Shown here: positions 1,250 through 60,611 of the stretch, piece after piece
Position numbering within the stretch: position 1 is the first letter of the stretch
Layout of the letters: each line of letters opens with the position of its first letter
DNA from: Octopus sinensis
Taxonomy: Eukaryota
Direction: 5' to 3'
Length of the DNA: 64,000 nt
NCBI RefSeq assembly: GCF_006345805.1
Contig: NC_042998.1
Location: forward strand, 33,480,001 to 33,544,000
Program-made: the position numbers and the translations under genes
The notes under the pieces: model-generated
Told to the model about the DNA's origin: nothing
The model's database searches: none
The model's input: the letters and a program-made list of their open reading frames with translations, nothing else

Positions 1250-1500
1250 CACAGCTTTTTCCAAGTATGTTAAATGAGCTAATGCTTCTTCCGTTTCATA
1301 TTTCAATCTTCTTAACATGGAAGTAGCGATTCCTGAATGTATGTGTAAGGCTATAGCACTGTGTGTATTCGCATGCGGAGTGCATGGCTGAGTCCAGGGT
1401 CTAAACGTCTTTTCTTGAGTAACAGATGGTAACGCCATTGTCCAAGTTTTTCGAATGAATAATATTGCTAACATAGTTATTACTTTGCCAGCTGGGTATC
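1250..1500 (-). CDS. Gene A coding exon 2, putative secreted Unpaired/IL-6-like helical cytokine (downstream exons lie left of the window)
   Basis: Acceptor ttacag|GATACC (phase 1), donor GTG|gtaaat (phase 0), 251 nt open. Encodes (G)[83 protein letters not shown]. Splice sites are conserved in two other copies. Confidence 0.85.
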
Positions 1501-6494: not shown

Positions 6495-6516
6495 CTTTCA
6501 ACAGTTCGAATGCCAT
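6495..6516 (-). CDS. Gene A coding exon 1 (MAFELLK+G, phase 1)
   Basis: ATGGCATTCGAACTGTTGAAAG|gtacga. Phase 1 joins exon 2 as G|GA = Gly. Identical in the paralogue at 28253-28274, with TATA and Inr upstream. Confidence 0.75.
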
Positions 6517-8618: not shown

Positions 8619-9951
8619 ATTATGTATGTATTATGTATGTATATATATAATATATATACATATATATAATAATATATATAAATTATATATCACACCGCGA
8701 CGAGACTTCCGCCGCTGTCTTTCTGGCCTGGCCCTCTCAAGGTAATGGACGACATTCTTTTTGCTCCGCTCGTCGTTCATAAAAAATTCCGCGTTCGCAA
8801 TACTTTTTTTCGTTCGGCGTTAACAGCCCTTCTTATCTTGTTTTTCCTTTACCTGTCTTTTACTGTTTATAATTTGTACTGTCGTTACTGTCCTGCTTTT
8901 GTTACCATTTTTTACCCCTCTCCGAAAAGATCTCAGAATTTTAATTGATTTGCTTTTCGCAGGAAGGAAAGTTTCTTGTCGAAGATACGTCTCGCTTTTA
9001 TCCTTCGAAACGTAGAGTATATTAAACCATAACGACTGAAGACGGGGTTTTTTCTTTGTGTTAATTGTCCTGTACTCTATTTTTTTGTTGTTGTTTAAAA
9101 AAATGTCCAGTTCCTTTGGTTTGTTCTATGTTTTCGTTTCTCATTGTGTTCGACGTCCTTTTGGTGTCCTGTACTCATATATGCGAGTTTATGTACATGT
9201 AGAGGTAGGTACGTACAAATATGTTTATATATATGCATATGTTTTATTTTATTTATTAATATATATATATATATATATTCGCCAATACATACACACACAC
9301 ACTCACGTTTTCTCTCCAGTGATGGAGGCAGCTTGCATGCAGACTGCTAAAACCAAAACGAAAATAATGACCTAATTCTTTCATAACTCGGAATACCCAC
9401 AGCATAAGAAGAAGAAGAAAAAGACGAAATGAAAGAGAAGAAGAAGAATGATGAAAATATTAGCATAAAAGTTATGGAACCCACAACTGGGATGTTTCAA
9501 GCGGCGGGACTTCAGATGTAGGAAAAATAAAACGGAGTCGAAGGAAAAAGAAAAGAGAAAAAAAAGTGGGGGGGGGTTAAAAAGGAAAAATGGAATTATG
9601 GCAAAAATAACTGAAGACTCTAAGTGTGAAGAACATCAATATAATTTTGGGTTCGGTTTTTTTTTATACCTAAGCTAATTTTCCCATTTTCACTTTCGGT
9701 TCTCCTCTTGGTTCGTGCCAGAGAAGTCTCAGATGCACCGAAGAAGGACAGAACGGTTGTACACGTTGCTAGAAATATCAGCCAAATGTTTATATACACT
9801 ACAAGGCCATATGATGAGAGGTCGTCTCACGATACGTAAAGCAGGGTTCTGTGTTCTAAGATAGTATCAACTTTTTAGTGAGGATAAATATTATCTTTTG
9901 ATATTAATATTGATTTTCTGGCTCCTAGTTTATATAAATATACACGTGCGA

Positions 9952-12511: not shown

Positions 12512-13231
12512 TCTATGTTTGACTTTTGCTTTATATTTGTACAAGTTGGCTCCAAGTCTCACCCAGAGACCTCAAGAGACAACAGGGTTGGAAGTTCATG
12601 TTGTTGTTATGCCTAGTGTGCCATATATTTGGGGGGTGGGGATGTTGTACTAATGAATGTCTAAAAAAAAATGTTTTTTTGGGGGGGTTTTTTTAAACCG
12701 AAAATTATGTTTGTTTTAAACCTTGAGATTACATAGAGAGTATTTTGCGTAGGATATGAGCAGTTCCCATGAGCACTATCTTTTGAACTTCTGCCATTTT
12801 TGGGTTTCCTGGTATCTGAGTTAGGTAGCTATCAGCCCCTTTTGCTATCATTCCCAGGGCACCTATGACAACAGGTATTGTTTTAGTCTTCAGCTTCCAC
12901 ATTTTGCTGATTTCTATTTCAAGATCTTTATATTTGCTCAGTTTTTGGTAGGTCTTGACAGATACGTTTATATCGATTGGGACAGTCATATCAATGAGGA
13001 GGCATGTTCTTTGTTTGAAGTCTTTCAATATGATGTCTGGCCTATTTGCATCTATCTTCCTGTCAGTTTGAATGGTGAAGTTCCAGAGGAGTGAGATGTG
13101 GTCATTTTCAAGCACTGGGGGTGGTTTGTGTTCCCACCAGTTTTTTTCATGGGGCAAATCCAGGTTTTTACAGATTACCCAGTGAATATATTGTGCAGCT
13201 CTATCGTGCCTGTTGAGATACTCTGTAGGCG
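12512..13231 (-). mobile_element. 5'-truncated REL-endonuclease non-LTR retrotransposon (R4/Dong-like) in a (TAA)n tract
   Basis: Open frame with RHD, RPDII, IDMTVP, KLSKYKDL and IPVVIGALG motifs of restriction-like endonuclease LINE C-termini. Stop at 12729, and (TAA)n on both sides. Confidence 0.85.
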
Positions 13232-13232
13232 C

Positions 13233-13411
<179 letters not shown>

Positions 13412-15310: not shown

Positions 15311-16816
15311 GCACATATATACATACATACATGCATACATACATACATACATACATACATACATACATACATACATACATACAAGGACAGACAAAGGGGT
15401 TAAGTCGATTATATCGACCCCAGTGTGTAACTGGTAATTTGAACTAAGAACGTAACGGCAGACGAAATACGGCTACGCATTTCGCCCGGCGAGCTAACGT
15501 TTCTGCCATCTCGCCGCCTTAATACCATTTCTTGGTTGGTGGGAGCTCCGTGCACCATTCCGATGATGAACATTATGATTCCGTTACACGAATCCATGTT
15601 TGTTTTTCAAAAACGTGCAAATTTTTCAAATGTAAAATTTAAAAAGAGACAATTCCGTCAATTCAGGGAAATTGACTAAGACAGGTAGCTGACAAAATGG
15701 AAGAGACACGATTTCTCGGTCAAAATGACATAAGTTCGACAAAAATGTATCCCTATTTAGATAAAATGAGCGAAAATTGCCGAGATTTTACAGACCCCGA
15801 AATCAAACGTGTTTTCTTCTTTAATATTGAACAAAGATTCCTCCAGAATCGACATTGCCTTTCATTCTTTTGAGATCGATAAAATAAGTTCTAATTAAAC
15901 AATGGGGTCAATATAATCGGCTTGGCCCCTTGACCGAAATTGCTGGCTTTGTGCCAAAATTTGAAACCAATATTCAATAACAATAACAACAACAATAACA
16001 ATGTTATTTTTTATTATGGCCTACAGGCCTTTTCATACATACAATAAAACCGTTACAGACAGGGGTTACGAAACATGTGGGGTTGGAATGAACAAGGTTA
16101 TATAAAAATGAAGTGGGGTGGGTGGGTGGAGAGACATTATACAGTCTATTACAAAGACGTGTTAAAAATTTAATATAAATTAAAAGCATAAATTATTAAT
16201 AAATATTATAAAAGCACCGGTATGAGAATGCTATTTAAAAAGCTTTTGTGAGATTCACACCTTACGACGAGAAAGTATAAATTATAAATATTCAATAGGA
16301 AATTTAGATCTCTTATATATTGCCCTAATATCTTGTTATTCTTTAAAAGCAGCAGCATATTTGGAGATATACGAGCACCGTTATTCAAGAAACCAGCCAA
16401 GTAACGTCAGGAATGTTTCGAGTGGAATGCTGTAAGATTTTAATCCTTACAATTTATATATTTTATATATTTTAAAATTTTAAATATTAACAATAAACAG
16501 ACGTATGTCTCGATTAAATTTTTGATATGAAATATGGAAATTTAGCATATTTTGCTAGGCAAATTGTGGAAAAAATATATAATTTTAAATATATTTAAAT
16601 AATTTAGTAATTTATAAAATTTTGTAGTTGAAACCAGTTAAGTTTGAACTGTGTATGATATGTTGAATGAGATATGTTCTGTTATTTTTAATGTTCTTGA
16701 AAAATAATATCTATGAATATACTTCAGATTAATATAATCCAATATTTAGATATCCATTCTTGAATGAGGGTGATATTTGTGTTTGGTGGAAAAGAAAATA
16801 TAACGGGATTGTTCAA

Positions 16817-17137
16817 TTAATTATAATAATGCTGATAGCGACGAAGCAGCTTTCCATATCTGGAAATAACTACGAAATCTCTTTCATATCTTTTAAATGT
16901 GTTTCCAGCATGACGTAGTTTATGGGACATGACAGAACGAGGTGTCTCAAACATTTCGTTTACACCGGTAGAACGAAGCCACATTTGTAGTTCACAGAGT
17001 TGTGAGAAATTCTCAGATTGTAAATCATCCAATTCATATTTCATGTCTGAATTATCTTCATCGGAATACATTTGTTCCAGGAATACTGCGACCTTTGACA
17101 ATGCCACAAAAGCTTCACTATACGAAGCACTTTTATT
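16817..17137 (-). CDS. Gene B last coding exon (predicted helices B-D of the putative cytokine)
   Basis: Acceptor tttcttttacag|AAT (phase 0), 106 codons plus TAA: NKSASYSEAFVALSKVAVFLEQMYSDEDNSDMKYELDDLQSENFSQLCELQMWLRSTGVNEMFETPRSVMSHKLRHAGNTFKRYERDFVVISRYGKLLRRYQHYYN. Confidence 0.85.
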   Translation of the reverse strand, partial: NKSASYSEAFVALSKVAVFLEQMYSDEDNSDMKYELDDLQSENFSQLCELQMWLRSTGVNEMFETPRSVMSHKLRHAGNTFKRYERDFVVISRYGKLLRRYQHYYN

Positions 17138-17440
17138 CTGTAAAAGAAATATTTATGCGTTATACATTACGCGTAAAGAAAGGATTATACTTGCATAAAT
17201 TCACAATTTAAGATGCATTTTAAGATGCAATTTAAGATAAGGTTATTAAGCATTTTGTGATTTTTAATGAAGTCATTATTAAATGATAAGAAATTCATTA
17301 GCCATTTAGCAGTTGGCGTATCGTTCGTGCACTTCATCTCCAATAAACGTAATTATTGAACCAGGTCAACCCCATTTTAATTTTTCTACATGCTGTACGG
17401 ACGGAACATTTGAACTAAGAACTATAAGCTAAAACAGTCA

Positions 17441-17700
17441 AGGAGCGTGACGTAGTGGATAGGGTATTTGCGCACGATCGCAGACCGTGGGTTCGATTCC
17501 CGGCAGTGTGTTATATCCTTGAATAAGACACTTTATTTGATCCAGTCCACTCAGCTGGGAGAAATGAGTTGTACAAGTAATTCAAAGGGCCGTTTTTGTC
17601 ACATTCTGTGCCACGTTGAATCTCCCTGAGAGCTACGTTAAGGGTACACATGTCTGTGGAGAGCTCAGCCACTTGCACGTTAATTGCACGACCAGGGCGT
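17441..17700 (+). mobile_element. SINE, family B-related variant
   Basis: tRNA-like head with GGTTCGATTCC. Body is the reverse complement of the family B body. Confidence 0.7.
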
Positions 17701-17915
17701 TTCATTCTTTTCTACTCTAGGCATAAGGCCCGAAATATTTTGGGCAGGGAACCAGTCGATTAGATCGATCACAGTGCGCAACTTTGACTGTCCTTGTTTG
17801 TACCCTCTATGTTCAGCTCCCTGTGGGCGATAAAGAAATTTTTAAAATGTTCTAATTCTAAAAGGAACAGGTACTGAGGTTTCTGATTGGAATAAAACAG
17901 TTAAAAGAGAGTTAC

Positions 17916-18011
17916 CTGTGTGTTGTTCTGACTGCTTGGTATCTCGGGAAAACCGGAAAGAGTTTTCATTTCAAGATATGAAACTATTTCTGCATCATTA
18001 AATCTAAGGGC
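17916..18011 (-). CDS. Gene B coding exon 3 (96 nt, phase 0-0)
   Basis: Acceptor atattttatag|GCC, donor CAG|gtaact. Encodes ALRFNDAEIVSYLEMKTLSGFPEIPSSQNNTQ, in frame with both neighbouring exons. Confidence 0.8.
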
Positions 18012-18166
18012 CTATAAAATATATAAAACCAAATATTAGGAAGTGCGTTAAAAAGAAAATTAGGGTGAAACAAAATTGGTGAATTTCTGTTTACATTCAT
18101 GCATGCATAGTCCGTGGTCAATGAAAGTTATACTGGAACCGATGATGAATAGTCTAAATATATTGG

Positions 18167-18447
18167 AATGTTATTACCTGTCGGAATATACTTGATGCAC
18201 GTTCGAACTGGGGAAAAAGATACTCACTACGTTTTGTCACGCAGAATATATCCTGTTTGTTGACAAATGGTGTATACACATTTAGGTCAGCTCGCAGCAC
18301 CACTTACCTAGACTTTGAGTCTAAGTAGGTGGCACTGCGAGCTGATCATTTGTCAACAAGTGAGATATATACTCCGTGAGAAAATAGATAGTGAGTGGCT
18401 TGTTTCCCAGTTCGAACGTGTATCAAGCATATTCGGCTGATAACATT
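18167..18447. mobile_element. Imperfect fold-back (MITE-like) palindrome, about 280 bp
   Basis: Nested inverted matches: cacgttcgaactggg/cccagttcgaacgtg, ttgttgacaaatg/catttgtcaacaa, cagctcgcag/ctgcgagctg. Confidence 0.75.
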
Positions 18448-18632
18448 GCATTTTCAATTTCACTATCTAGTCTTCACCCCTGCGTATCATAATATAAATA
18501 TATTGGGTTCAAATTTTGGCACAATGCCCTTGGCACCTTGGGCAAAGTGTCTTCTACTATAGCCTCGGGCCGACCAAAGCCTTGTGAGAGGATTTGTTAA
18601 ACGGAAACTGAAAGAAGCCCGTCGTATATATC

Positions 18633-18663
<31 letters not shown>

Positions 18664-18685
18664 CATACGTATATATATATATATA

Positions 18686-18729
<44 letters not shown>

Positions 18730-19300
18730 TGTATATATGTATGTGTGTGTATATGTTTGTGTATCTGTGCTTGTCCCACCAACATCGCTTGACAACCGAT
18801 GCTGGTGTGTTTACGTTCCCGTAACCTAGCAGTTTGGCAAAAGTGACCGATAGAATAAATACTAGGCTTACAAATAAGTCGACCTCGGCGAAATTTGAAC
18901 TCAGAACGTGAGGACGGACGAAATGCTGCAAAGTAGTTTGCTCGGCACGCTAATGATTCTGCCAGTTCGCCGTCTCAAATTCAATAAATATTAGGGATGA
19001 TTATATAAGCAGTGCCCTCGAACAGTTATAAAGCAACATGTCTGGTTTAGCATGATGGATGGAAGCTAGACTACAGCAGCATTGGACAGAAAACCCTACG
19101 AATGCTGATATTGTAGTGAATGGTCCTGTATCAATCTGGCATTTAAGAAAAATCAGTTTATGATTTGTATGTATTAAATGTACGATAAGGATTATTCTTC
19201 AATGAAATTTAAAGGCGACGAAGATAGATTGAACTAAGAAAAGTGTCAGTCAAAATAAACTTTAAGTAAATACAGATATACGTATATTATATACATACAC

Positions 19301-19381
<81 letters not shown>

Positions 19382-20138
19382 CTATATATATATATATATA
19401 ATACATACAAATAATATGTGGAGCTTAGTTCACATGTGATCTAAACAAAGAGGTACGCCGAGTAAGTGCTATAATTGGCCGTTCGTTATGTTCCAAGTTC
19501 ACAGCTGATGGTGGATCTAGGGATCCGTATTAGAGTTCCATTAGACCAGGTATATATTATATTAAGAAGAAAAAGCAAAACCAAGGCAGAACGAGTATAT
19601 GGAATCATTTCGAATAATTTAATGAAAGTAAACCTTCTTCCCAAAAAAGTCTTGTAACATCCTCGTAAGAGATTTCATAACATTTAAAAACATTTTTTTA
19701 AACCGCTTTTTAAATATATACGTAGATAGATAGATGACTAGACTGGTATATATGTATATACAATATATAAACGAATAGTGGGTGTGTGGATATATAAGGA
19801 TAATGGGTATGTGGATATATATACATATATATACGACGAGCTTCTTTCAGTTTCCGTCTATCAAATCCACTCATTCTACCAATTATATACGTTTTTATTT
19901 TTTTTTTTTTTGCAATTTACTTAATCATCGGTATATTATTGTTATTTTATTTTTAATATTTCTATATATGTAATTTTCTAGGTGGTGTAATTTAATTTTT
20001 CATTTGAATTGATAAAAAGTGGTTATTTCTAATTCATATATATATATATTATACTGTGCGAAATTTGATTAGTATTTCTAAATTGAATTTCCCTGTAAGT
20101 TAGGATTAATATTCCCTCAAATAATTAATAATAATAAA

Positions 20139-20183
<45 letters not shown>

Positions 20184-20501
20184 TTATTATATATTATTAT
20201 TATTATTATCATTATTATTATTATTATAATTATTATATTATTATTATTATTAATAATTATTATATGATTATTATTATTATTTATATATATATATATATAT
20301 ACACATACAGAAAACTAGGCGGAAGGAGGTCAATAGTGATAACGCATTCACATTATACTGAATTCCGCATAGAGAAGTGAACAATTAATGATTGAATCAT
20401 TACTCATGGTAATTCAGAACGCCTAAATAAACACAAACACTTCCAGATTGAAATTTTTGGAAATTCACAGTCTCTGACTAAGTGTCTATACGCGTGCGTT
20501 A

Positions 20502-20535
<34 letters not shown>

Positions 20536-21118
20536 GATATTATATATATATATATAATATATATATATACAACGACCTCCGACACACAAGTGCAAACAAG
20601 GGAGTCAGAGAAAGGCAGAATGCCACTTAAATCTGAACACTACTATAGAAATATTCTTTTAAAAAAACTTTTCTTCTAATTTTTCTAAATTTAATTATTT
20701 AATCGTTACAGTTGAAAAGGTCTCAAAATGACCGAAACCGGTACTGAAATGTTCACTATAAATTATTTTAGCATTTTCTATTTTTGACTTGTTTTTCATA
20801 TATATCAACTCGTGTGTTCCTTTTCACCCATATATATATATTGCTAATTAAACACGCACGATATGTTTTTTTGTTTTTGTGTCAAAAATCCCTTTTGTTG
20901 CATGTCCTGTTAACTCTTCAACTCTTATGCCACACGTTACGACTTGCTCTCTTTAGTCCGTAGGTCTCTGCCTGCAGTAAGCTAAAACAGGCCATATAAT
21001 ATATATTATATATATAATTATATATAATATATATATATATATATAATATATATATATATATCATATATAAATATTATAATATATTATTATTATTATTACT
21101 ATATAGTAGTAGTAGTAT

Positions 21119-21177
<59 letters not shown>

Positions 21178-21542
21178 TAGAAAGAAAGGAAATGGAGAAA
21201 GATGGATGTATGAATAATTTATTTGTATGATATAAAGATGTTAGAAATTTTTTTTAAAAACATTACAATACAAGTAAATGATATATGTTGTAAAGCTCAA
21301 AAGAAAATGAGAGATGTGGAAAAACCTACAGAAATGTTTCAGCCCCTTGTTGATATGCAATTTTAAGCATTTGGTTTATTTGCTAAGTAAGGCATCATTT
21401 TTAACTATATTGGAGCAGAACTTCTTCAGGGTTATTATGGGCTTATAGAATTAAGGTTAACATTTTTCTTTGATGGACACATACAGAATGTGTGTGTGTG
21501 TGCATCTATATATATATATATATATAATATATATATTATATA

Positions 21543-21589
<47 letters not shown>

Positions 21590-21971
21590 TATACATACAA
21601 ATATATATATATATACACATTGGCTATTTTGAAATTAAATCGGCAGTTTATATTTACTGCTGAGAAAACCGCGCGAGTGTAGTGGATTTTGAAAAGTTAT
21701 AGCATATAGACTCGAGGCATGGTTATTATCGCCTCGTGACTATATGGTAGTCCTTGGCTTTCTCATGAAGAGGTAACGCCAGTTGTAAATAAATTTAATT
21801 TATTTACAAAAGATTGCCGAAACTATGCATAGTCCAGAAAGGAGAGGGTAAACGTTTATTATTTCTCTTTCCATTTCAGAATTACAACTGTTAGTGGTTT
21901 GGAGTTTGGCTGCTCTTTCTAGTGAGTCGGATGTCCTATTATGGCCATCCCTTATATGTTTGAATGTATAT

Positions 21972-22026
<55 letters not shown>

Positions 22027-22082
22027 ATGTATGTATTATGGGGAGAGAGAGGGAGAGAGATGATAGATAGATAGATAGATAT

Positions 22083-22171
<89 letters not shown>

Positions 22172-22209
22172 ATTAAAACGTATTTATTGAAATACGAAAT
22201 CATATTTAC

Positions 22210-22466
22210 CATAGCTTTTTCCAAGGATGTTACATGATAAAATGTTTCTTTCGTTTTATATTTCAATCTTTTTAATATGGAAGGAGCGTCTTCTGGATCT
22301 ATGTTTAAGTCTATAGCACTGTCGGTATTCGCATACGGAGTGCATGGCTGATTCCAAGGTCTAGACGTCGCTTCTTGAGTAACAGATGGTAACGCCATTG
22401 TCCAAGTTTTTCGAATGAATAATATTGCTAACATAGTTATTACTTTTACTTTGCCAGCTGGGTATC
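22210..22466 (-). CDS. Gene B exon 2, copy b (257 nt, in-frame KV duplication)
   Basis: Same splice sites as 1250-1500. Contains PWNQPC and ends ...HVTSLEKAM|gtaaat. Confidence 0.75.
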
Positions 22467-23703
22467 CTGTAAGTATTTAAGATATACATTTACAATCAAA
22501 ATACATTTACAACTAATTTACACGTGGAAAAACAATGAGAAAATATTCATAATGAGCTGCTAATATAAAGAAGTAATTTAACCCATTGAGTGTCCAAAGC
22601 ATTTTCAGAAGTTTGTCTTAAGCGTTCGTGCTTGCTGCCCAATTTTTAGCAAACCTTTGTTTCATACGTTCTGAGTAAAATAAAGCTTTCTTATCATGTC
22701 TCATGTCACTCTGGTAGTTGGAAGAAAAATTAGGAATGTGTATGATATATGATGCATGGACGCTAGGGTATTAGATGGAATACAGAGGACAGGCAGACGG
22801 TTAAAATTTGAGAAATGGATTTTACCATGATTCAGGGCAATGAAATTTAGTGAAAGGTCACAGTCATGTGACTGGCACTTATGGCACTTATGGAACTAAT
22901 GAGGGAATTACTGCGTGACCGCTCGACCTGCTAGAAATAAGAACCAGATCTTCCTCAAATCACAATCCATCGATTAAATAAAGGGCATATTGTTATAATG
23001 AGATCCTAGGTTCCCTATACATAGAGAAAAGACAAGATGGTCAAGGCTGGGTGCCTTGACCTTCTCGTTTGTTATACATGTTTGTATAATCCCAACTCAT
23101 CCTGAACTGGAGATTTGTTTGAAATGGAAAACTGATCGCGATAGGATTTGAACTCGGGGTTCAGGGAACCATAACAAATACCACAAGGCGTTTTTATATG
23201 ATCGTTCTCGAATCACATCGATTCATATGGCCGGTTCCCCCCGGTTTCCGCGATGACTATATTTCCCCCCTGGACGGGATGCAGGATTAATTCGTTCTTG
23301 CCAGCTGAGCGGACTGGAACAATGTGAAATGAAGTGCTTTGCTCAAGAACACAACGAATCACCCGGTCATGGAATCGAAACCACAATTTTAAGATCATGA
23401 ATTCAACACCCTTACCACTATGTCACACGCATCCATATTTGTCCTGCAAGGCATATGTTCTGCGCTCTGACAACTCTACCAATTCACTCACCCCTAAATT
23501 TACGAAACGCACTTTAGGAAATCAATTAATCATAGGCGCGTGCGGAGGCTGTGAGGTAAGATGCTTGCTTCCCAGCCACGTGGTTCTGGGTTCAGTCCTA
23601 CTACGCGGCACCTTGAGCAAGTGACGTCTACTATAGTCTCGGGCTGACCAAATCCTTGTGAGTGGATTTGGTAGACGGAAACTGGAAGAAGCCCGTCGTA
23701 TAC

Positions 23704-23747
<44 letters not shown>

Positions 23748-23919
23748 ATATATACGGTTTAAGTAATTGAGATTCAAGTGAGTTCTAATGAATTCACATG
23801 AATATGGTCCTTAACTAGGATGCACCGGAAATCTATATGGTGTTAACCATACGACAAGTGGGGTGATTACAAATAGGAAAAAAAGCAACAAGAATGGATC
23901 AAAATATCGGTACCATTTT

Positions 23920-24003
23920 TCGGCTGATGAGTACGAGCCACCTATATTTACTGCAATTTTTGTAGCTTATTAAAGATGTCCTCGTACGAAACAATTGTAC
24001 CGA
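23920..24003 (+). ncRNA. Type-I hammerhead ribozyme motif
   Basis: TCGG-CTGATGA-GTACGAG(loop)CTCGTAC-GAAAC-AATT-GTA-CCGA. All conserved core nucleotides, 4-bp stem I, 7-bp stem II and GUA triplet are present. Confidence 0.8.
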
Positions 24004-24060
24004 TATTTTATCCATTCTTGTTCCTTTTTTTCCTATTTTTTTTTTTTTTTTCCCTATATT

Positions 24061-24100
<40 letters not shown>

Positions 24101-24218
24101 ATATATACTATATATATATATATATATATTATACAACATACATACATATGTATGTATGTATGTATGTATGTATATGGGGAGAGAGAGGGAGAGAGATGAT
24201 AGATAGATAGATAGATAT

Positions 24219-24273
<55 letters not shown>

Positions 24274-24344
24274 TATAGATAGATAGATAGATGATAGATA
24301 GATAGAATTAAAACGTATTTATTGAAATACGAAATCATATTTAC

Positions 24345-24595
24345 CATAGCTTTTTTCAAGTATGTTACATGATAAAATGTTTCTTTCGTTTTATATTTCA
24401 ATCTTTTTAATATGGAAGGAGCGTCTTCTGGATCTATGTTTAAGTCTATAGCACTGTCGGTATTCGCATACGGAGTGCATGGCTGATTCCAAGGTCTAGA
24501 CGTCGCTTCTTGAGTAACAGATGGTAACGCCATTGTCCAAGTTTTTCGAATGAATAATATTGCTAACATAGTTATTACTTTGCCAGCTGGGTATC
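24345..24595 (-). CDS. Gene B exon 2, copy a (251 nt)
   Basis: Acceptor ttacag|GATACC, donor ATG|gtaaat. Ends ...HVTYLKKAM. Confidence 0.75.
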
Positions 24596-25822
24596 CTGTA
24601 AGTATTTAAGATATACATTTACAATCAAAATACATTTACAACTAATTTACACGTGGAAAAACAATGAGAAAATATTCAATAATGAGCTGCTAATATAAAG
24701 AAGTAATTGTAACCCATTGAGTGTCCAAAGCATTTTCAGAAGTTTGTCTTAAGCGTTCGTGCTTGCTGCCCAATTTTTAGCAAACCTTTGTTTCATACGT
24801 TCTGAGTAAAATAAAGCTTTCTTATCATGTCTCATGTCACTCTGGTAGTTGGAAGAAAAATTAGGAATGTGTATGATATATGATGCATGGACGCTAGGGT
24901 ATTAGATGGAATACAGAGGACAGGCAGACGGTTAAAATTTGAGAATGGATTTTACCATGATTCAGGGCAATGAAATTTAGTGAAAGGTCACAGTAATGTG
25001 ACTGGCACTTATGGCACTTATGGAACTAATGAGGAATTACTGCGTGACCGCTCGACCTGCTAGAAATAAGAACCAGATCTTCCTCAAATCACAATCCATC
25101 GATTAAATAAAGGGCATATTGTTATAATGAGATCCTAGGTTCCCTATACATAGAGAAAAGACAAGATGGTCAAGGCTGGGTGCCTTGACCTTCTCGTTTG
25201 TTATATATGTTTGTATAATCCCAACTCATCCTGAACTGGAGATTTGTTTGAAATGGAAAACTGATCGCGATAGGATTTGAACTCGGGGTTCAGGGAACCA
25301 TAACAAATACCACAAGGCGTTTATATAGATCGTTCTCGAATCACATCGATTCATATGGCCGGTTCCCCGGTTTCCGCGATGACTATATTTCCCCACTGGA
25401 CGGGATGCAGGATTAATTCGTTCTTGCCAGCTGAGCGGACTGGAACAATGTGAAATGAAGTGCTTTGCTCAAGAACACAACGAATCACCCGGTCATGGAT
25501 TCGAAACCACAATTTTAAGATCATGAATTCACCACCCTTACCACTATGTCACACGCATCCATATTTGTCCTGCAAGGCATATGTTCTGCGCTCTGACAAC
25601 TCTACCAATTCACTCACCCCTAAATTACGAAACGCACTTTAGGAAATCAATTAATCATAGGCGCGTGCGGAGGCTGTGAGGTAAGATGCTTGCTTCCCAG
25701 CCACGTGGTTCTGGGTTCAGTCCTACTACGCGGCACCTTGAGCAAGTGACGTCTACTATAGTCTCGGCTACCAAATCCTTGTGAGTGGATTTGGTAGACG
25801 GAAACTGGAAGAAGCCCGTCGT

Positions 25823-25854
<32 letters not shown>

Positions 25855-26049
25855 ATATATATTATATATAATATATATATATATATACGGTTAAGTAATT
25901 GAGATTCAAGTGAGTTCTAATGAATTCACATGAATTGGTCCTTACTAGGATGCACCGGAAATCTATATGGTGTTAACCATACGACAAGTGTGGTGATTAC
26001 AAATAGGAAAAAAAGCAACAAGAATGGATCAAAATATCGGTACCATTTT

Positions 26050-26130
26050 TCGGCTGATGAGTACGAGCCACCTATATTACTGCATTTTGTAGCTTATTAA
26101 AGATGTCCTCGTACGAAACAATTGTACCGA
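26050..26130 (+). ncRNA. Type-I hammerhead ribozyme motif (duplicate of 23920-24003)
   Basis: Same core and stems, inside the 2.1-kb tandem duplicate. Confidence 0.78.
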
Positions 26131-26180
26131 TATTTTGATCCATTCTTGTTCCTTTTTTTCCTATTTTTTTTTCCTATTTT

Positions 26181-26267
<87 letters not shown>

Positions 26268-27159
26268 CATACATACATACATATGTATGTATGTATGTAT
26301 GTATGTATATACATATATATATATACATAGATATATATCTATGTATGTGTGTGTATATATATATATATATATATGCGTGTGTAAGTCTTTGTCTGTGTGT
26401 CTCCCTATCACCACCTGACAACCGGTGTTGGTGTGTTTACATCCCCATAACTTAGCGCTTCGGGAAAAGACTCCGATAAGATAAGTACTAGGCTATAAAA
26501 GGTAAGTCCTGGGGCCGATGTGATTGACTAAAACTCCTCAAGGTGGTGCTACGGCATGGCCGCAGTCATATAATTGAAACAAGTAAAAGAATAAAAGAAT
26601 TTTTAAAATGTGTGTTCGTGTGTGTGTATGTGCCTGTGTGTGTGTATGTGCCTGTGTGTGTGTATGTGCCTGTGTGTGTATGTGTGGAAACTATAAATGA
26701 TATGGATGGCTTATCAACAGTTTAACAACATAGATGCAAAGATTAGAGAGGGTACAAAGTGGTACCGGCATTGCTAGAAATAAGAGCCAAGCCGACTCGT
26801 TAGCCACAAGAGCACTTTCTAAATAAGCTGACAAGGGAGACGAAACAAGCTCCCTACAACATCGGATATAGTCAGATCACTGGTGATTTCGAATAATGAT
26901 GCTAGAGCATCTTAATACCCATCGGTGTCTCTTACCGCGCCTAGGGTTAAACTCAACTCACCTTGTCAATTCATAAGATATCCATTGTACTCATACGCTG
27001 ATTTCAAAAGCGGTAAAAGTGAAAACTACAAATAATATGGGTGGCTTACTAGCAATTTAATACCCTATGGGCAAATTTATAGACGTCTCTAAAGTGATAC
27101 AGGGTACGATGTAGTACCGGCATTGCTAGAAATAGGAGTCAAAAAAACTCAATAGCAAC

Positions 27160-27196
<37 letters not shown>

Positions 27197-27201
<5 letters not shown>

Positions 27202-27355
27202 AGTGGTTGGCGTTAGGAAGGGCATCCAGCTGTAAAAAATCTGCCAGATCAGACTGGAGCCTGGTGCAGCCCTTGGCTTCCCAGACCCCGGTCGAACCGT
27301 CCAACCCGTGCTAGCGCGGAAAACGGACTTTAAACGATGATGATGATGATGATGA
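27197..27355 (+). mobile_element. 3' tail of an RTE-related SINE or LINE ending in (GAT)n
   Basis: ggcgttaggaagggcatccagctgtaaaa motif followed by a ttaaacgatgatgat tail. Confidence 0.55.
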
Positions 27356-27428
27356 TATATATATATATATATATAATTATATATATATATACATACATAC
27401 ATACATACATACATACATACTATATATA

Positions 27429-27470
<42 letters not shown>

Positions 27471-28252
27471 TACATACATAACATACATACCTACATACAT
27501 ACATACATACATACATACCTCATACTACATACATACATATATATATAAATAAGCCACAGCTCGTGAGCTGAAACTAGATAAAATATTTAAAAAATATTAT
27601 ATATATACATACATATATAATTTTCAGCTCAGAAACGGCTGAACTACTCAATTTTACATCAACTGTGAACCTTCTACAAAACTCCGATTGGGCCCCGATT
27701 AATTACTGCACTTAATTATGGGACGGAGCTCTTATTTCATATTTAGACATCTTAGACCGCACCCCTCCCAAAAGGCTTACCCAACCTGGAGGCGCTTACC
27801 GACACACTTTAACTTTTGTCCCCCCCTCCTTACATGCTGCCCCAACTTCCTCTAGTTTTTAGTAACGCTGACACAGTGACCTCTGTTCCTTGGACCCTTT
27901 TTTTTTTATTTCATTCATTCGAACATTCCCTGTTCGTTCGTTTCTCATACTTCTGTCACATTTGAAATATCCGCCACGAAGTTTGTTTGTTTTGGGGTTT
28001 TTTTCCCGCTACAATTTCGGACCCCTGGACATCTTGCTCTGTAAGGGTATTATTATTTTTTCTTTTTCCTGTGAATGTTGACTGGCATCAATCGAGAAGG
28101 AATTGTAACCACGCCAATTTTACTGGTCTCAGAGGGCCTGAGAAAAAAGATCATGGGAACAGACCCTTTCTCCTGAACAATCGAACAAAATGAAAACAAG
28201 AAAGAAAGCAATCGCAAAAATTAAATAAAGATTAGAAAACACTTAATCGTAC

Positions 28253-28274
28253 CTTTCAACAGTTCGAATGCCAT
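28253..28274 (-). CDS. Gene B coding exon 1 (MAFELLK+G, phase 1)
   Basis: ATG at 28274, donor AAAG|gtacga. Identical to 6495-6516. Confidence 0.75.
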
Positions 28275-28393: not shown

Positions 28394-28610
28394 AACTGAT
28401 TCATCCTTGCAAATTTCCCCATATATATACCAACTCAAGATGTGAAATTCATATTAAACGCATGACACAAATGAAAGTAAATTTTCATCAAAATACCTTT
28501 TCGGAAAACAATATAATGATGGCTGATGATGTCATTACGGAAACTGAAAGAACGATTTCCGGCCACATCCGCCACAAGTGGAAAGATGCAAACAACTTTC
28601 AGTTCTCGAT
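28394..28610 (-). promoter_or_regulatory. Putative gene B promoter
   Basis: Inr consensus TCAGTT (A at 28397), TATATATAT at 28429-28421, CRE-like TGATGTCA plus GAAACTGAAA (28540-28549). Confidence 0.6.
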
Positions 28611-29790: not shown

Positions 29791-30466
29791 TCATAGTGTT
29801 ATCGCCTTCGGCGATTTTGTTATTGTTGTTTTTGTTGTGCCTTATCACCCTACACCTTTAATTTCCTTTCAGTAAAGCTTAAACGCCACCACATCACATA
29901 AGTGTTCTAAAACAGACACTTTTGATTTTCCCGCTAAAAATGTCCGGCTTTATTATCAATTTCCTCTTTCGTTTCTTCTACGGAAATCTCTGCTTCCTTG
30001 TCGATTGTAAATTTCGTTTTCTTCGTTATTTTTCAAGTTTAGGAAACACCTATTCAAAGAAATTTTGGAAGTAAAAATTCCTATGAAACTTCCTCTGCAT
30101 GGGGGAAGTAATGAACTGAAAGTAAAAGTGGGAAGATTCGTTAGAAATAAGATCGATAATATTGATTTTTCAGCTGAAGTACTACGATATTTTTTTTCTC
30201 TTTTCTTTTCTTTTCTAGTTCTCGCCGGTATCAACAACATTACCATAAATTCTCTCAAGTTCGTCCGTTTCCGATAAACCCAACATGCAAATTAATAAAA
30301 ATCAACTTCGATGAAGTATTTCTTTATTTCAGAGAATGATAATTATTTCAAATATCAAGATGCTGATCAAGAAATTAACAATGGTGTCAGCTATACGTGT
30401 ACAAAACCATATCTGCTGTGCAGTGTACATGAATGAAAAATATAGATCTCAACGTATCACTTAGTA

Positions 30467-35063: not shown

Positions 35064-35825
35064 TTCTTAATTCTTTTATTTGTTTCAGTCATTTGACTGC
35101 GGCCATGCTGGAGTACCGTCTTTAGTCGAACAAATCGACCCCCGGGACCTATATATATATATATATATTCGCAAGTACATACACACACGCACACACCCGT
35201 TTTCTCTCTAGTGATGTAGGCAGCTTGCATGCAGACTGCTAAAACCAAAACAAAAATAATGACCTAATTCTTTCATAACTCGGAATACCCACAGCATAAG
35301 AAGAAGAAGAAAAAGACGAAATGAAAGAGAAGAAGAATGATGAAAATATTAGCATAAAAGTTATGGAACCCACAACTGGGATGTTTCAAGCGGCGGGACT
35401 TCAGAATGTAGGAAAAATAAAACGGAGTCGAAGGAAAAAGAAAAGAGAAAAAAAAAGTGGGGGTGGGGGTTAAAAAGGAAAAATGGAATTATGGCAAAAA
35501 TAACTGAAGACTCTTAAGTGTGAAGAACATCAATATAATTTTGGATTCGGTTTTTTTTTTATACCTAAGCTAATTTTCCCATTTTCACTTTCGGTTCTCC
35601 TCTTGGTTCGAGCCAAAGAAGTCTCAGATGCACCGAAGAAGGACGGAACGGTTGTACACGTTGCTAGAAATATCAGCCAAATGTTTATATACACTACAAG
35701 GCCATATGATGAGAGGTCGTCTCACGATACGTAAAGCAGGGTTCTGTGTTCTAAGATAGCATCAACTTTTTAGTGAGGATGAATATTATCTTTTGGTATT
35801 AATATTGATTTTCTTGCTCTTCGTT

Positions 35826-35881
<56 letters not shown>

Positions 35882-38539: not shown

Positions 38540-40250
38540 CATTGGGAGTTTCACAAAGATCTAGGCCTTAATCCTTACACTCAGAACAGAGAGTGGAACG
38601 GTCGTCTCCAGTGCCATAAATACTTCAATGGGAATATTACAGAGAGATAGTCTCTCTGTACTTCTACTCATTTTGGTGTTAAAACCATTATTATTCCGGT
38701 TCCAGAAGTCAAATGGCAACATGATAGGGTCTGCTACTGCAAGAGATATTAATGTAAACCATACTTTCTTTGTGGATGACCTCAGGACTTGTGCTAAAAG
38801 TGTTAACAATGCCACCACCCCAAAAACAAACAGCTGAAGTTAATAACATTTTCAGCTGACACAGGAATGGAATTTGGTCAAAAGAAACATTTAATTGTTA
38901 AACGGGGGAATCCGTCCCCCAGACACAAAACCTGTGCATCAGTGGTCTCGCTATATCTCCTGTCCCACACAAAGAATGCTACAGGTACCTAAGCATTTAT
39001 GAAAATATATCATACAAAAGTACTGTGAATAGAGTGACCCAAGAATATTATACCAGTCTTAGAAAAATATGGCAGTCCGAACTCTCCTCTTACAAGACAA
39101 TATCCCACAATGCATTTTCAGTACCAGTGCTGGTTCCAACATTTGGGATACTTGACTGGACTGTAAAAGAAATCCACTCCATAAAAATAAATTCACTAGA
39201 TTCTGCTATCAAACTGGAAATCTCTACAGAAATAGTGATATCAACAGGCTCTGCCTAAGAAGAGATAAAAGACGTAGAGGCTTGGAATGTCGCAAAGACT
39301 CTCTCAGACAACATTTGCCAAACAACAGCAGCAAAAATAAACACATTAACTTAGTGCTGAAAAGAGAAAACAACAATATCCTATGTGTTGGAAGCGGATC
39401 TCCCATACCACCGCAAATTAGTCGGACTAACATACTGCAAACAAGACCCGGAAGCGAAACACTCATCATGCCAAAAATAGATCATAGCTATGTTTCTCGT
39501 AGACTTGAAGAAGATAGTAATGTTGACATGAAGTGATGCCTCTCTTGGACTCATAACCGTTACATCACATCACGTTTCGAAGGCTATGCATTTGCAATCC
39601 AAGAATAGGAGATTGCTACTAAAATGTCTAATCAACAAAAGAGACAGGGAAGCCATTGGAGTGACAAGAGGCGACCGAAAATATAGATTGCATCATATTT
39701 CAGGGGAAGACATCACACATGTGGTTAGCAGCTGCCTAAAAGTGTCATCAAGGTATTACCTCCCAATGAGACACGAAGTCGTGTCATCCAGAAAAAAAGA
39801 CTGTTCTGGAATAAATGTAGAGAATCCCTCTGTTATCGAACATGTGCACAAACAGCAGCACAAGGAATACTGGTGGAACATTCTCATCAAGACATCTGTC
39901 AAGTCTAAGCATACCAGGCCGGATATTGTTGTTTGAGTCAGACAAGAGAAAGTATGTACCGTTGTAGAGGCCAGCTGTCCTGCCGCTGTGAATGTCTCTT
40001 TGAAAATCAAAGAAAAAGAAGATAACTATGGATAACTGTTTCGAAACCCCCAACTTCTATATATATATATATATATATATATTGTACCAATAATAACTGG
40101 AGCAGTTCGTTTTGTAAGTAAATGCCTGTCAATCTGGATGAGCTTGGGTTTTCAGAAAAAGAAATCAACCAACTTGCTCGCACATTAAAACACAATCTAT
40201 AAGTGGAAAGGGAAAAGCACGCAAGACTTTTCTGGGGTTTAAAATGTAAC
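38540..40250 (+). pseudogene. Degenerate RT plus REL-endonuclease non-LTR retrotransposon ORF (R4/NeSL-like)
   Basis: Frameshifted motifs GILQRDSLS, FFVDDL, GMEFG, FGILDWT, EDITHVVSSC...RH, RPDIVV. Confidence 0.8.
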
Positions 40251-59875: not shown

Positions 59876-60611
59876 GAGTTTAGCCACGCCTTGTGGGCAC
59901 GTTGGTGCAGAGAATGGTCTGTGACACTCGCTACAACAGCTACCCCACCTCACGGAACTCATATCTCAGATGGGCCGCAGTTACCCCCAATCTGGCGAAG
60001 GAAACCGGCAGTGCGGGATCCAAAAACACCCGATGTCTCGGCGGCCACCTTATTGATTGTATGGTTGTTGCTGTTTAGTGTCAAATCGTTTTTCATTGAC
60101 ATAAAATCAAAGACATTTCATCCAACATCTTAATATAATAATTGTGAATGTCAGTGTGTCAGTGTGTCACGCTCTTTCATCTTTACTCCTAGAGGCCGTA
60201 GCCCAACATATCATACCATTTTGGAATCAGACCGACTCCGTGAGTTTAGCCACGCCTTGTGGGCACGTTGGTGCAGAGAATGGTCTGTGACACTCGCTAC
60301 AACAGCTACCCCACCTCACGGAACTCATATCTCAGATGGGCCGCAGTTACCCCCAATCTGGCGAAGGAAACCGGCAGTGCGGGATCCAAAAACACCCGAT
60401 GTCTCGGCGGCCACCTTATTGATTGTATGGTTGTTGCTGTTTAGTGTCAAATCGTTTTTCATTGACATAAAATCAAAGACATTTCATCCAACATCTTAAT
60501 ATAATAATTGTGAATGTCAGTGTGTCAGTGTGTCACGCTCTTTCATCTTTACTCCTAGAGGCCGTAGCCCAACATATCATACCATTTTGGAATCAGACCG
60601 ACTCCGTGAGT
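59876..60611. repeat. 366-bp tandem duplication
   Basis: 59876-60241 is repeated at 60242-60607, with GAGT microhomology at the junctions. Confidence 0.92.

Follow-up and report, generated by a model that had tools for sequence, protein, structure and literature searches.

Introduction

Vertebrate IL-6-family genes have a tiny first coding exon with a phase-1 intron, followed by phase-0 introns, and in the gp130-family cytokines helices A and C make up receptor-binding site II. Insect Unpaired-type ligands carry an N-terminal W-x-x-P-C and a later LCE motif. Here we describe an octopus gene, which we call gene A, on the minus strand of a 64,000-nucleotide (nt) stretch of Octopus sinensis DNA (NC_042998.1, positions 33,480,001 to 33,544,000; hereafter ‘the window’, to which coordinates refer unless a separate locus is named). 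Judging from its modelled fold, its product is probably a secreted long-chain four-helix cytokine that serves as ligand of a molluscan Domeless/gp130-like JAK/STAT receptor.

A dome/gp130 archetype receptor has been described (PMC1963337), and Dome homologues occur in 48 invertebrates, with annotated Upd2 homologues only in Drosophila species (PMC5385356). Molluscs have IL6R, JAK and STAT and no IL-6-type ligand according to a BLAST-based survey (PMC13203501), and a further survey found no member of the IL-6 superfamily in invertebrates (PMC8226699). For Aplysia, JAK, STAT and SOCS are described, and a passage on cytokines mentions only MIF, progranulin, TNF and IL-17 (PMC9334734). A mosquito Upd-like protein activates JAK/STAT (bioRxiv 10.1101/2025.09.21.677592). 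Our own search of titles and abstract openings, with most subscription journals and all supplements outside its scope, returned no molluscan Upd/IL-6-type ligand.

Results

Gene A encodes a two-cysteine protein with a hydrophobic leader

Gene A is a real gene, annotated but unnamed in two Octopus species: its fourth exon is 100% identical to XP_036356621 (O. sinensis) and CAI9718642 (O. vulgaris), both uncharacterized. Because the locus is annotated under these accessions, ‘hidden’, the word used in a preliminary description of this DNA, was an overstatement. The gene structure proposed there held up, in that we re-derived four minus-strand exons at the same positions, with AG/GT ends throughout, phases 1,0,0 and an open frame of 229 amino acids (aa). 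Exon 1 (28253..28274; 22 nt) comprises seven codons plus 1 nt and ends in phase 1. Exon 2 (24345..24595; 251 nt) encodes the hydrophobic leader, the W-x-x-P-C motif and helix A, exon 3 (17916..18011; 96 nt) a long AB loop with a short helix, and exon 4 (16817..17137; 321 nt) helices B, C and D, the second cysteine and the stop codon.

The protein contains exactly two cysteines, Cys47 and Cys171, and three sequons, at residues 120, 124 and 166, as had been claimed. The leader, also part of that description, is evident from a hydropathy peak of 3.1 at residues 14-23, against a maximum of 0.9 in the mature part, and the protein is likely to be secreted. Lys88 is probably an assembly error for Glu, since Glu is found in the O. 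vulgaris protein, in a second copy of exon 2 and in paralogue B. The latter two features (22466-22210 and 6516-1250, respectively) were not part of the preliminary description and are treated below.

The predicted fold resembles gp130/IL-6-family cytokines

AlphaFold run on the single sequence gave a predicted local distance difference test score (pLDDT) of 38.8, and we used instead an AlphaFold2 model of the O. vulgaris protein (P0002) based on an alignment of 49 rows (pLDDT 85, predicted template modelling score 0.76). The model has four long helices: A (residues 63-92 of gene A; 67-96 of P0002), B (125-149; 129-153), C (153-179; 157-183) and D (203-228; 207-232). Of the loops that connect them, AB and CD are long and BC is short. 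Helix A ends where intron 2 falls, and intron 3 immediately precedes helix B.

A long-chain four-helix bundle had been anticipated from the sequence, and the structure search bore this out: the best 8 matches among 48,161 chains were all gp130/IL-6-family cytokines. The best VIA-align scores were those of IL-11 (Z 17.3; root-mean-square deviation 2.1, 153 residues aligned), CLCF1 (17.1), LIF (16.9) and IL-6 (16.8), with IL-27, OSM and CNTF next. The first 26 rows were all helical cytokines, and the best non-cytokine fold scored Z 8.3. Unrelated helical bundles can reach Z 13-14; the values of these gp130-family cytokines exceed that and the whole domain is covered. Foldseek agreed with this ranking and returned helical cytokines in all matches listed. 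In the ESM Atlas, all 10 of the 10 best named matches lay in the cytokine clan, and with ten vertebrate families set aside the three matches listed were all Unpaired clusters (0.83-0.76), which we treat as leads only. On the evidence of this model, gene A very likely encodes a long-chain helical cytokine.

Gene A has relatives across protostomes

Searching 1.84 billion proteins with a profile of the octopus copies gave 60 matches at E≤0.001, among them the RefSeq protein itself. We looked up 20 of the other 59 and found 11 from molluscs, one from an annelid, three from chelicerates, four from insects and one unnamed; all 19 named relatives are uncharacterized or hypothetical at NCBI. The relatives, with E-values down to 1e-15, include proteins of oyster, mussel, scallop, limpet, Aplysia, annelid, tick and insect. 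Word-index homology searches matched only the two Octopus proteins.

The family shares the motifs W, P-C, L-x-x-x-A-V-x-x-E, L-C and R-x-x-R-D. Across 28 near-full-length rows (27 homologues selected by length plus the O. vulgaris protein), both cysteines and P-C are invariant, and W-x-x-P-C is present in 26. A hydrophobic leader occurs in all 23 rows whose sequence extends 20 or more residues ahead of the motif (of 30 rows, 7 were too short), and the mature parts contain no transmembrane stretch. A profile from the 27 non-octopus homologues scored the spliced gene A protein at 124 bits, against at most 7.2 for shuffles (891 of 1000 listed), and the best reversed-sequence match had E 0.87; because the homologue rows were originally retrieved with an octopus query, this control is not fully independent. 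With a profile from 12 arthropod-like rows (five named arthropods, seven unnamed) the figures were 78 bits and at most 7.5. Family clusters in the ESM Atlas have 91 members, mainly arthropod, and 114, mainly mollusc, with model template modelling scores of 0.74-0.85. In a quick tree, 17 of whose 33 inner branches are open, the octopus copies and six unnamed matches form their own clade with support 99.

By sequence, then, W-x-x-P-C and the second cysteine define a protostome-wide family that includes insect proteins, and profile homology together with the two invariant cysteines places gene A in this unnamed family.

Comparison with IL-6-type cytokines and Unpaired

With the vertebrate gp130/IL-6 family the octopus protein shares a predicted four-helix bundle (Z 15-17 over 134-165 residues), a similar mature size, a leader, and a short first coding exon followed by a phase 1 intron. 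It differs in sequence (8-11% identity), in its N-terminal arm with W-x-x-P-C and its helix C cysteine, and in encoding helices B to D in one exon, where IL-6 has five exons. The octopus proteins had no match above cut-off to the Pfam profiles IL6, IL11, LIF_OSM and CNTF, and the relatives matched IL11 only at E 0.014-0.098. Phe204 opens helix D in copies A, B and D of the gene cluster described below, and Phe is found there in only 8 of 33 other rows; judged by position, it would correspond to the site III aromatic residue with which helix D begins in the IL-6/gp130 family.

Drosophila Unpaired is likewise a protostome helical cytokine, and the weak collinear matches of the insect relatives begin near the W-x-x-P-C region. 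The two differ in size: about 230 aa in octopus against 410-585 aa in representatives of the Unpaired cluster. Neither the octopus protein nor the genome matched the Unpaired profile PF15972 (gathering score 27 bits), and 87 scans of relatives gave none above cut-off, the best reaching 19.4 bits. Weak matches came from insect members, one of 59 (E 8.8e-4) and five of 28 (E 0.03-0.05), all five being sawfly isoforms of one cluster. The function of Unpaired and of the Aedes Upd-like protein has been tested only in Diptera; W-x-x-P-C and second-cysteine motifs were seen in non-dipteran insect relatives. The sequence link between the octopus family and fly Unpaired is weak and lies below the Pfam cut-off.

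Probable transcript evidence and alternative gene models

We compared read contigs with positions 16500-18600 of the 11.5-kb gene A, taking runs X1-X3 as probable RNA, a status that is guessed. Contigs from X1 and X2 have 0 differences from exon 4. Record 17 of X3, which comes from a related species (30 differences in 478 nt), aligns to 16664-17137 and resumes at 17916, and the splice sites used are donor 17916 and acceptor 17137. In intron 3, at 17139-17422, depth was zero in the three probable RNA runs and run X4 was continuous. The proposed junction of exons 3 and 4 was thereby matched exactly; that of exons 2 and 3 was left unconfirmed, because record 17 overruns the exon 3 acceptor by 53 nt and ends at 18064 in intron 2. 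This second junction rests on the O. vulgaris prediction and the homologue alignment.

We infer exon 1 from its sequence rather than from reads. Its ATG has A at -3 and G at +4, and the same 22 nt are identical in copies B and C. The O. vulgaris model has exons 2-4 as above, with three differences, and takes exon 1 from 35297, giving an alternative first coding exon at 35264..35297 (minus strand; 11 codons plus 1 nt). We prefer the exon at 28253..28274 because of its putative core promoter, the lack of an ATG between this and the start codon, and a donor and start context better than those of the alternative (donor GTCATT). The promoter candidate (28394..28429, minus strand) came from a motif scan and consists of an initiator-like TCAGTT preceded, at a distance of about 30 nt, by a TATA-like box. 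Copies B and C share the identical TATA box and have GCAGTT as initiator. The alternative first exon is also duplicated in the copy B and copy C units; in all three young copies it falls within the duplicated unit, which extends 7.5 kb or more upstream of exon 1 (35150-35837, 9260-9942). Near the two candidate first exons we found no STAT or strict NF-kB consensus, a loose STAT match at 30061 being the one exception. The region upstream of exon 1 also has ETS-like, AP-1/CRE-like and loose kB-like motifs, which may be chance occurrences and to which we give no weight.

In the RefSeq model the protein begins downstream of the leader, exon 2 is taken from the second copy, and a 75-nt in-frame cassette (18178..18252, minus strand) is included that appears in no other model. 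We rejected the leaderless start, the leader being family-wide, and the cassette, as no homologue carries the insert. Copies B and C have the cassette as well. It sits on an arm of an imperfect inverted repeat (18184-18434) and is probably not a normal exon. The repeat itself is a 250-nt imperfect hairpin, resembling miniature inverted-repeat transposable elements, that A, B and C all have in their intron 2; it holds the AG-GT cassette, which could occasionally be exonised.

The 3’ untranslated region (16444..16816, minus strand) has poly(A)-type hexamers at 16692 and 16444 and ATTTA at 16600, 16590, 16519 and 16485, which are weak evidence because the region is AT-rich. RNA-like contigs extend into it as far as 16627 and 16664.

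An apparent duplication of exon 2

The second copy of exon 2 (22210..22466, minus strand) lies inside a 2.2-kb tandem duplicate (24086-26310 against 21953-24175, 96.6% identity). If it were real and the frame broken, copy A would be non-working here and the cytokine would come from copy B or D. The stop at codon 98 that arises when both copies are spliced in would fit this, as would the absence of exon 2 from copy C and the conflict between the two database models over exon 1 and the cassette exon. However, the duplicate resembles sequencing error, the O. vulgaris protein has a single exon 2 with only 3 residue differences from position 8 onward, and the X1 and X2 contigs match exon 4 of A perfectly. 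We consider a non-working gene A very improbable. The duplicate is probably an assembly artefact, since 1-nt indels account for many of the differences that lie outside microsatellites, each copy departs from paralogue B in ways of its own, and using both leads to the stop at codon 98. Elsewhere in the window, at 59876-60611, a 370-nt segment is tandemly duplicated with 100% identity, possibly as a further artefact of the assembly.

Gene A heads a tandem cluster of four

Our analysis newly places gene A at the head of a tandem cluster of four. The four copies of exon 4 lie within 85 kb on one strand, and a profile search over 264 kb found no fifth. Paralogue B has exon 1 at 6495..6516 and exon 2 at 1250..1500 (both minus strand), with exons 3 and 4 to the left of the window (L022:4336-4241 and L022:1850-1530). 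It is intact, 229 aa long and 75% identical to A, with a predicted isoelectric point of 9.8, and scores 111 bits on the family profile.

Copy C keeps exons 1, 3 and 4 and would be out of frame, as exon 2 is missing; the site of exon 2 is occupied by about 3.5 kb of other sequence, which bears inverted arms of 1.2 kb. An open reading frame in this insertion (L020:9210-9419, minus strand) resembles a GIY-YIG endonuclease as encoded by Penelope-like retroelements. Copy D, 36% identical, retains W-x-x-P-C, the two cysteines and, at the borders of exon 2, phases 1 and 0. The junction of its exons 3 and 4 (L016:4421-4329 and 2938-2582) is uncertain by a single base. Its exon 3 closes on a string of Gs and falls one base short of phase 0, which would reflect either a slip in the assembly or a phase 2 junction with a second AG located 17 nt further downstream. 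A first exon of copy D was not found in the cluster sequence searched, and a word-index homology search matched it to no database protein.

In other molluscs, Lottia P0025/P0044 and Aplysia P0018/P0072/P0073 have neighbouring gene identifiers and equal-length contigs, which suggests that tandem arrays of the family recur. The window also holds fragments without a Pfam match at 12732-13406 (minus strand) and 38902-39933 (plus strand), which by eye resemble the restriction-like endonuclease end of non-long-terminal-repeat retrotransposons.

Divergence between copies A and B

Between copies A and B we counted 63 nonsynonymous and 9 synonymous changes, all of them beyond codon 29 (dN/dS 1.93; p 0.04, one-sided). 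Nonsynonymous divergence is 11.6%, against 4.6% in non-coding sequence (7,234 collinear columns, with repeat-like and non-collinear blocks excluded); synonymous divergence does not differ from this background (p 0.32). The changes concentrate in helix A and in the BC turn plus helix C, where they affect 27 of 60 positions; for helices B and D the count is 10 of 52 (p 0.005 in this post hoc contrast). Net charge is -2 in A and +15 in B. A quick tree assigns the change to the B branch, and the family majority favours the A residue over the B residue by 28 to 14. The young octopus cluster thus bears what look like signs of positive selection.

The charge of B and the excess of amino-acid changes would also suit a history in which the basic, fast-changing copies B and C left signalling and became secreted effectors, for example antimicrobial or salivary, with A staying a cytokine. 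B nonetheless retains both cysteines, W-x-x-P-C, an identical leader and its score of 111 bits on the family profile. We think such a change of role highly unlikely.

Discussion

We propose that the leader of the gene A protein is cleaved near Ala29, which would release a glycoprotein of about 23 kDa. The two invariant cysteines would tie the N-terminal arm to helix C, and helices A and C would form receptor-binding site II as in gp130-family cytokines. Binding of a Domeless/gp130-like receptor would then lead to its dimerisation and to activation of JAK and STAT in octopus cells. After duplication, copies B and C likely changed their receptor-facing surface under positive selection.

A number of observations weigh against this proposal. 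The octopus protein matched no Pfam family in exon and full-protein scans, and profile searches of the PDB by sequence gave no cytokine, only weak unrelated matches. Foldseek E-values were all above 0.001, with identities of 8-15%, and since placental lactogen, leptin and growth hormone also reach Z 12-15, the fold does not fix the receptor. The N-terminal arm has a pLDDT of about 50-60, a low confidence that leaves the disulfide putative, and the h-region of the leader is short. No receptor gene was identified in the genome with PF09240 or PF25552; these searches do not show absence, because they were made exon by exon and their controls were silent. PF06328 gave four weak matches, the best a generic immunoglobulin-like exon. 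The JAK match in the genome is weak (E 0.08), and the only STAT match in the assembly is on a separate small contig, L039 (G000:C6125), with introns of about 20-30 nt. With the receptor not found, JAK weak and the STAT contig doubtful, a JAK/STAT pathway in molluscs rests on the published work. As for selection, the test depends on only 9 synonymous changes, the helix contrast was drawn post hoc, polarity is mixed (copy D agrees with A at 10 sites and with B at 9), and gene conversion could lower the non-coding divergence; few synonymous sites, gene conversion and assembly error all limit this result.

The introns of L039 are unlike those of the octopus genes examined, and the contig may come from another organism, possibly a contaminating parasite such as a dicyemid.

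Alternatively, gene A could encode a secreted helical cytokine or hormone of growth, metabolic or neurotrophic control that signals through a different class I receptor chain, or solely with a soluble partner in the manner of CLCF1 and IL-27, instead of being a simple Domeless ligand. CLCF1 ranks second and IL-27 fifth in the structure search, with lactogen, leptin and growth hormone following, and one Lottia member is named ‘Ciliary neurotrophic factor’ in the database. One study describes a second, CLF-3-type receptor in the sea squirt, and also finds few class I receptors in the invertebrates it examined, with a dome/gp130-like archetype (PMC1963337). Because the hydrophobic leader is family-wide, export would probably need no partner. 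We regard action through a different receptor as unlikely, and signalling through a Domeless/gp130-like receptor as the probable role of gene A. By analogy with insect Upd and the mosquito Upd-like protein, responses to infection, wounding or regeneration would be the likeliest settings.

More tentatively, the W-x-x-P-C family may be the ancestral protostome ligand of the Domeless/gp130 type, sharing one bilaterian ancestor with IL-6/IL-11, with Unpaired a divergent offshoot. The octopus expansion would then have proceeded under positive selection on the receptor-binding face, yielding an acidic, diffusible A and a strongly basic, likely matrix-bound B beside an older D. We hold these propositions jointly and with some reserve.

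Gene A and its relatives are a concrete candidate for the ligand reported missing in molluscs, so that the question of the missing ligand can be tested with one recombinant protein. If the proposal is correct, it would provide a named upstream signal for cephalopod immunity, wound healing and arm regeneration, and it would be informative about how old IL-6-type signalling is. The paralogues, having diverged rapidly, would offer a natural test of how a cytokine family diversifies.

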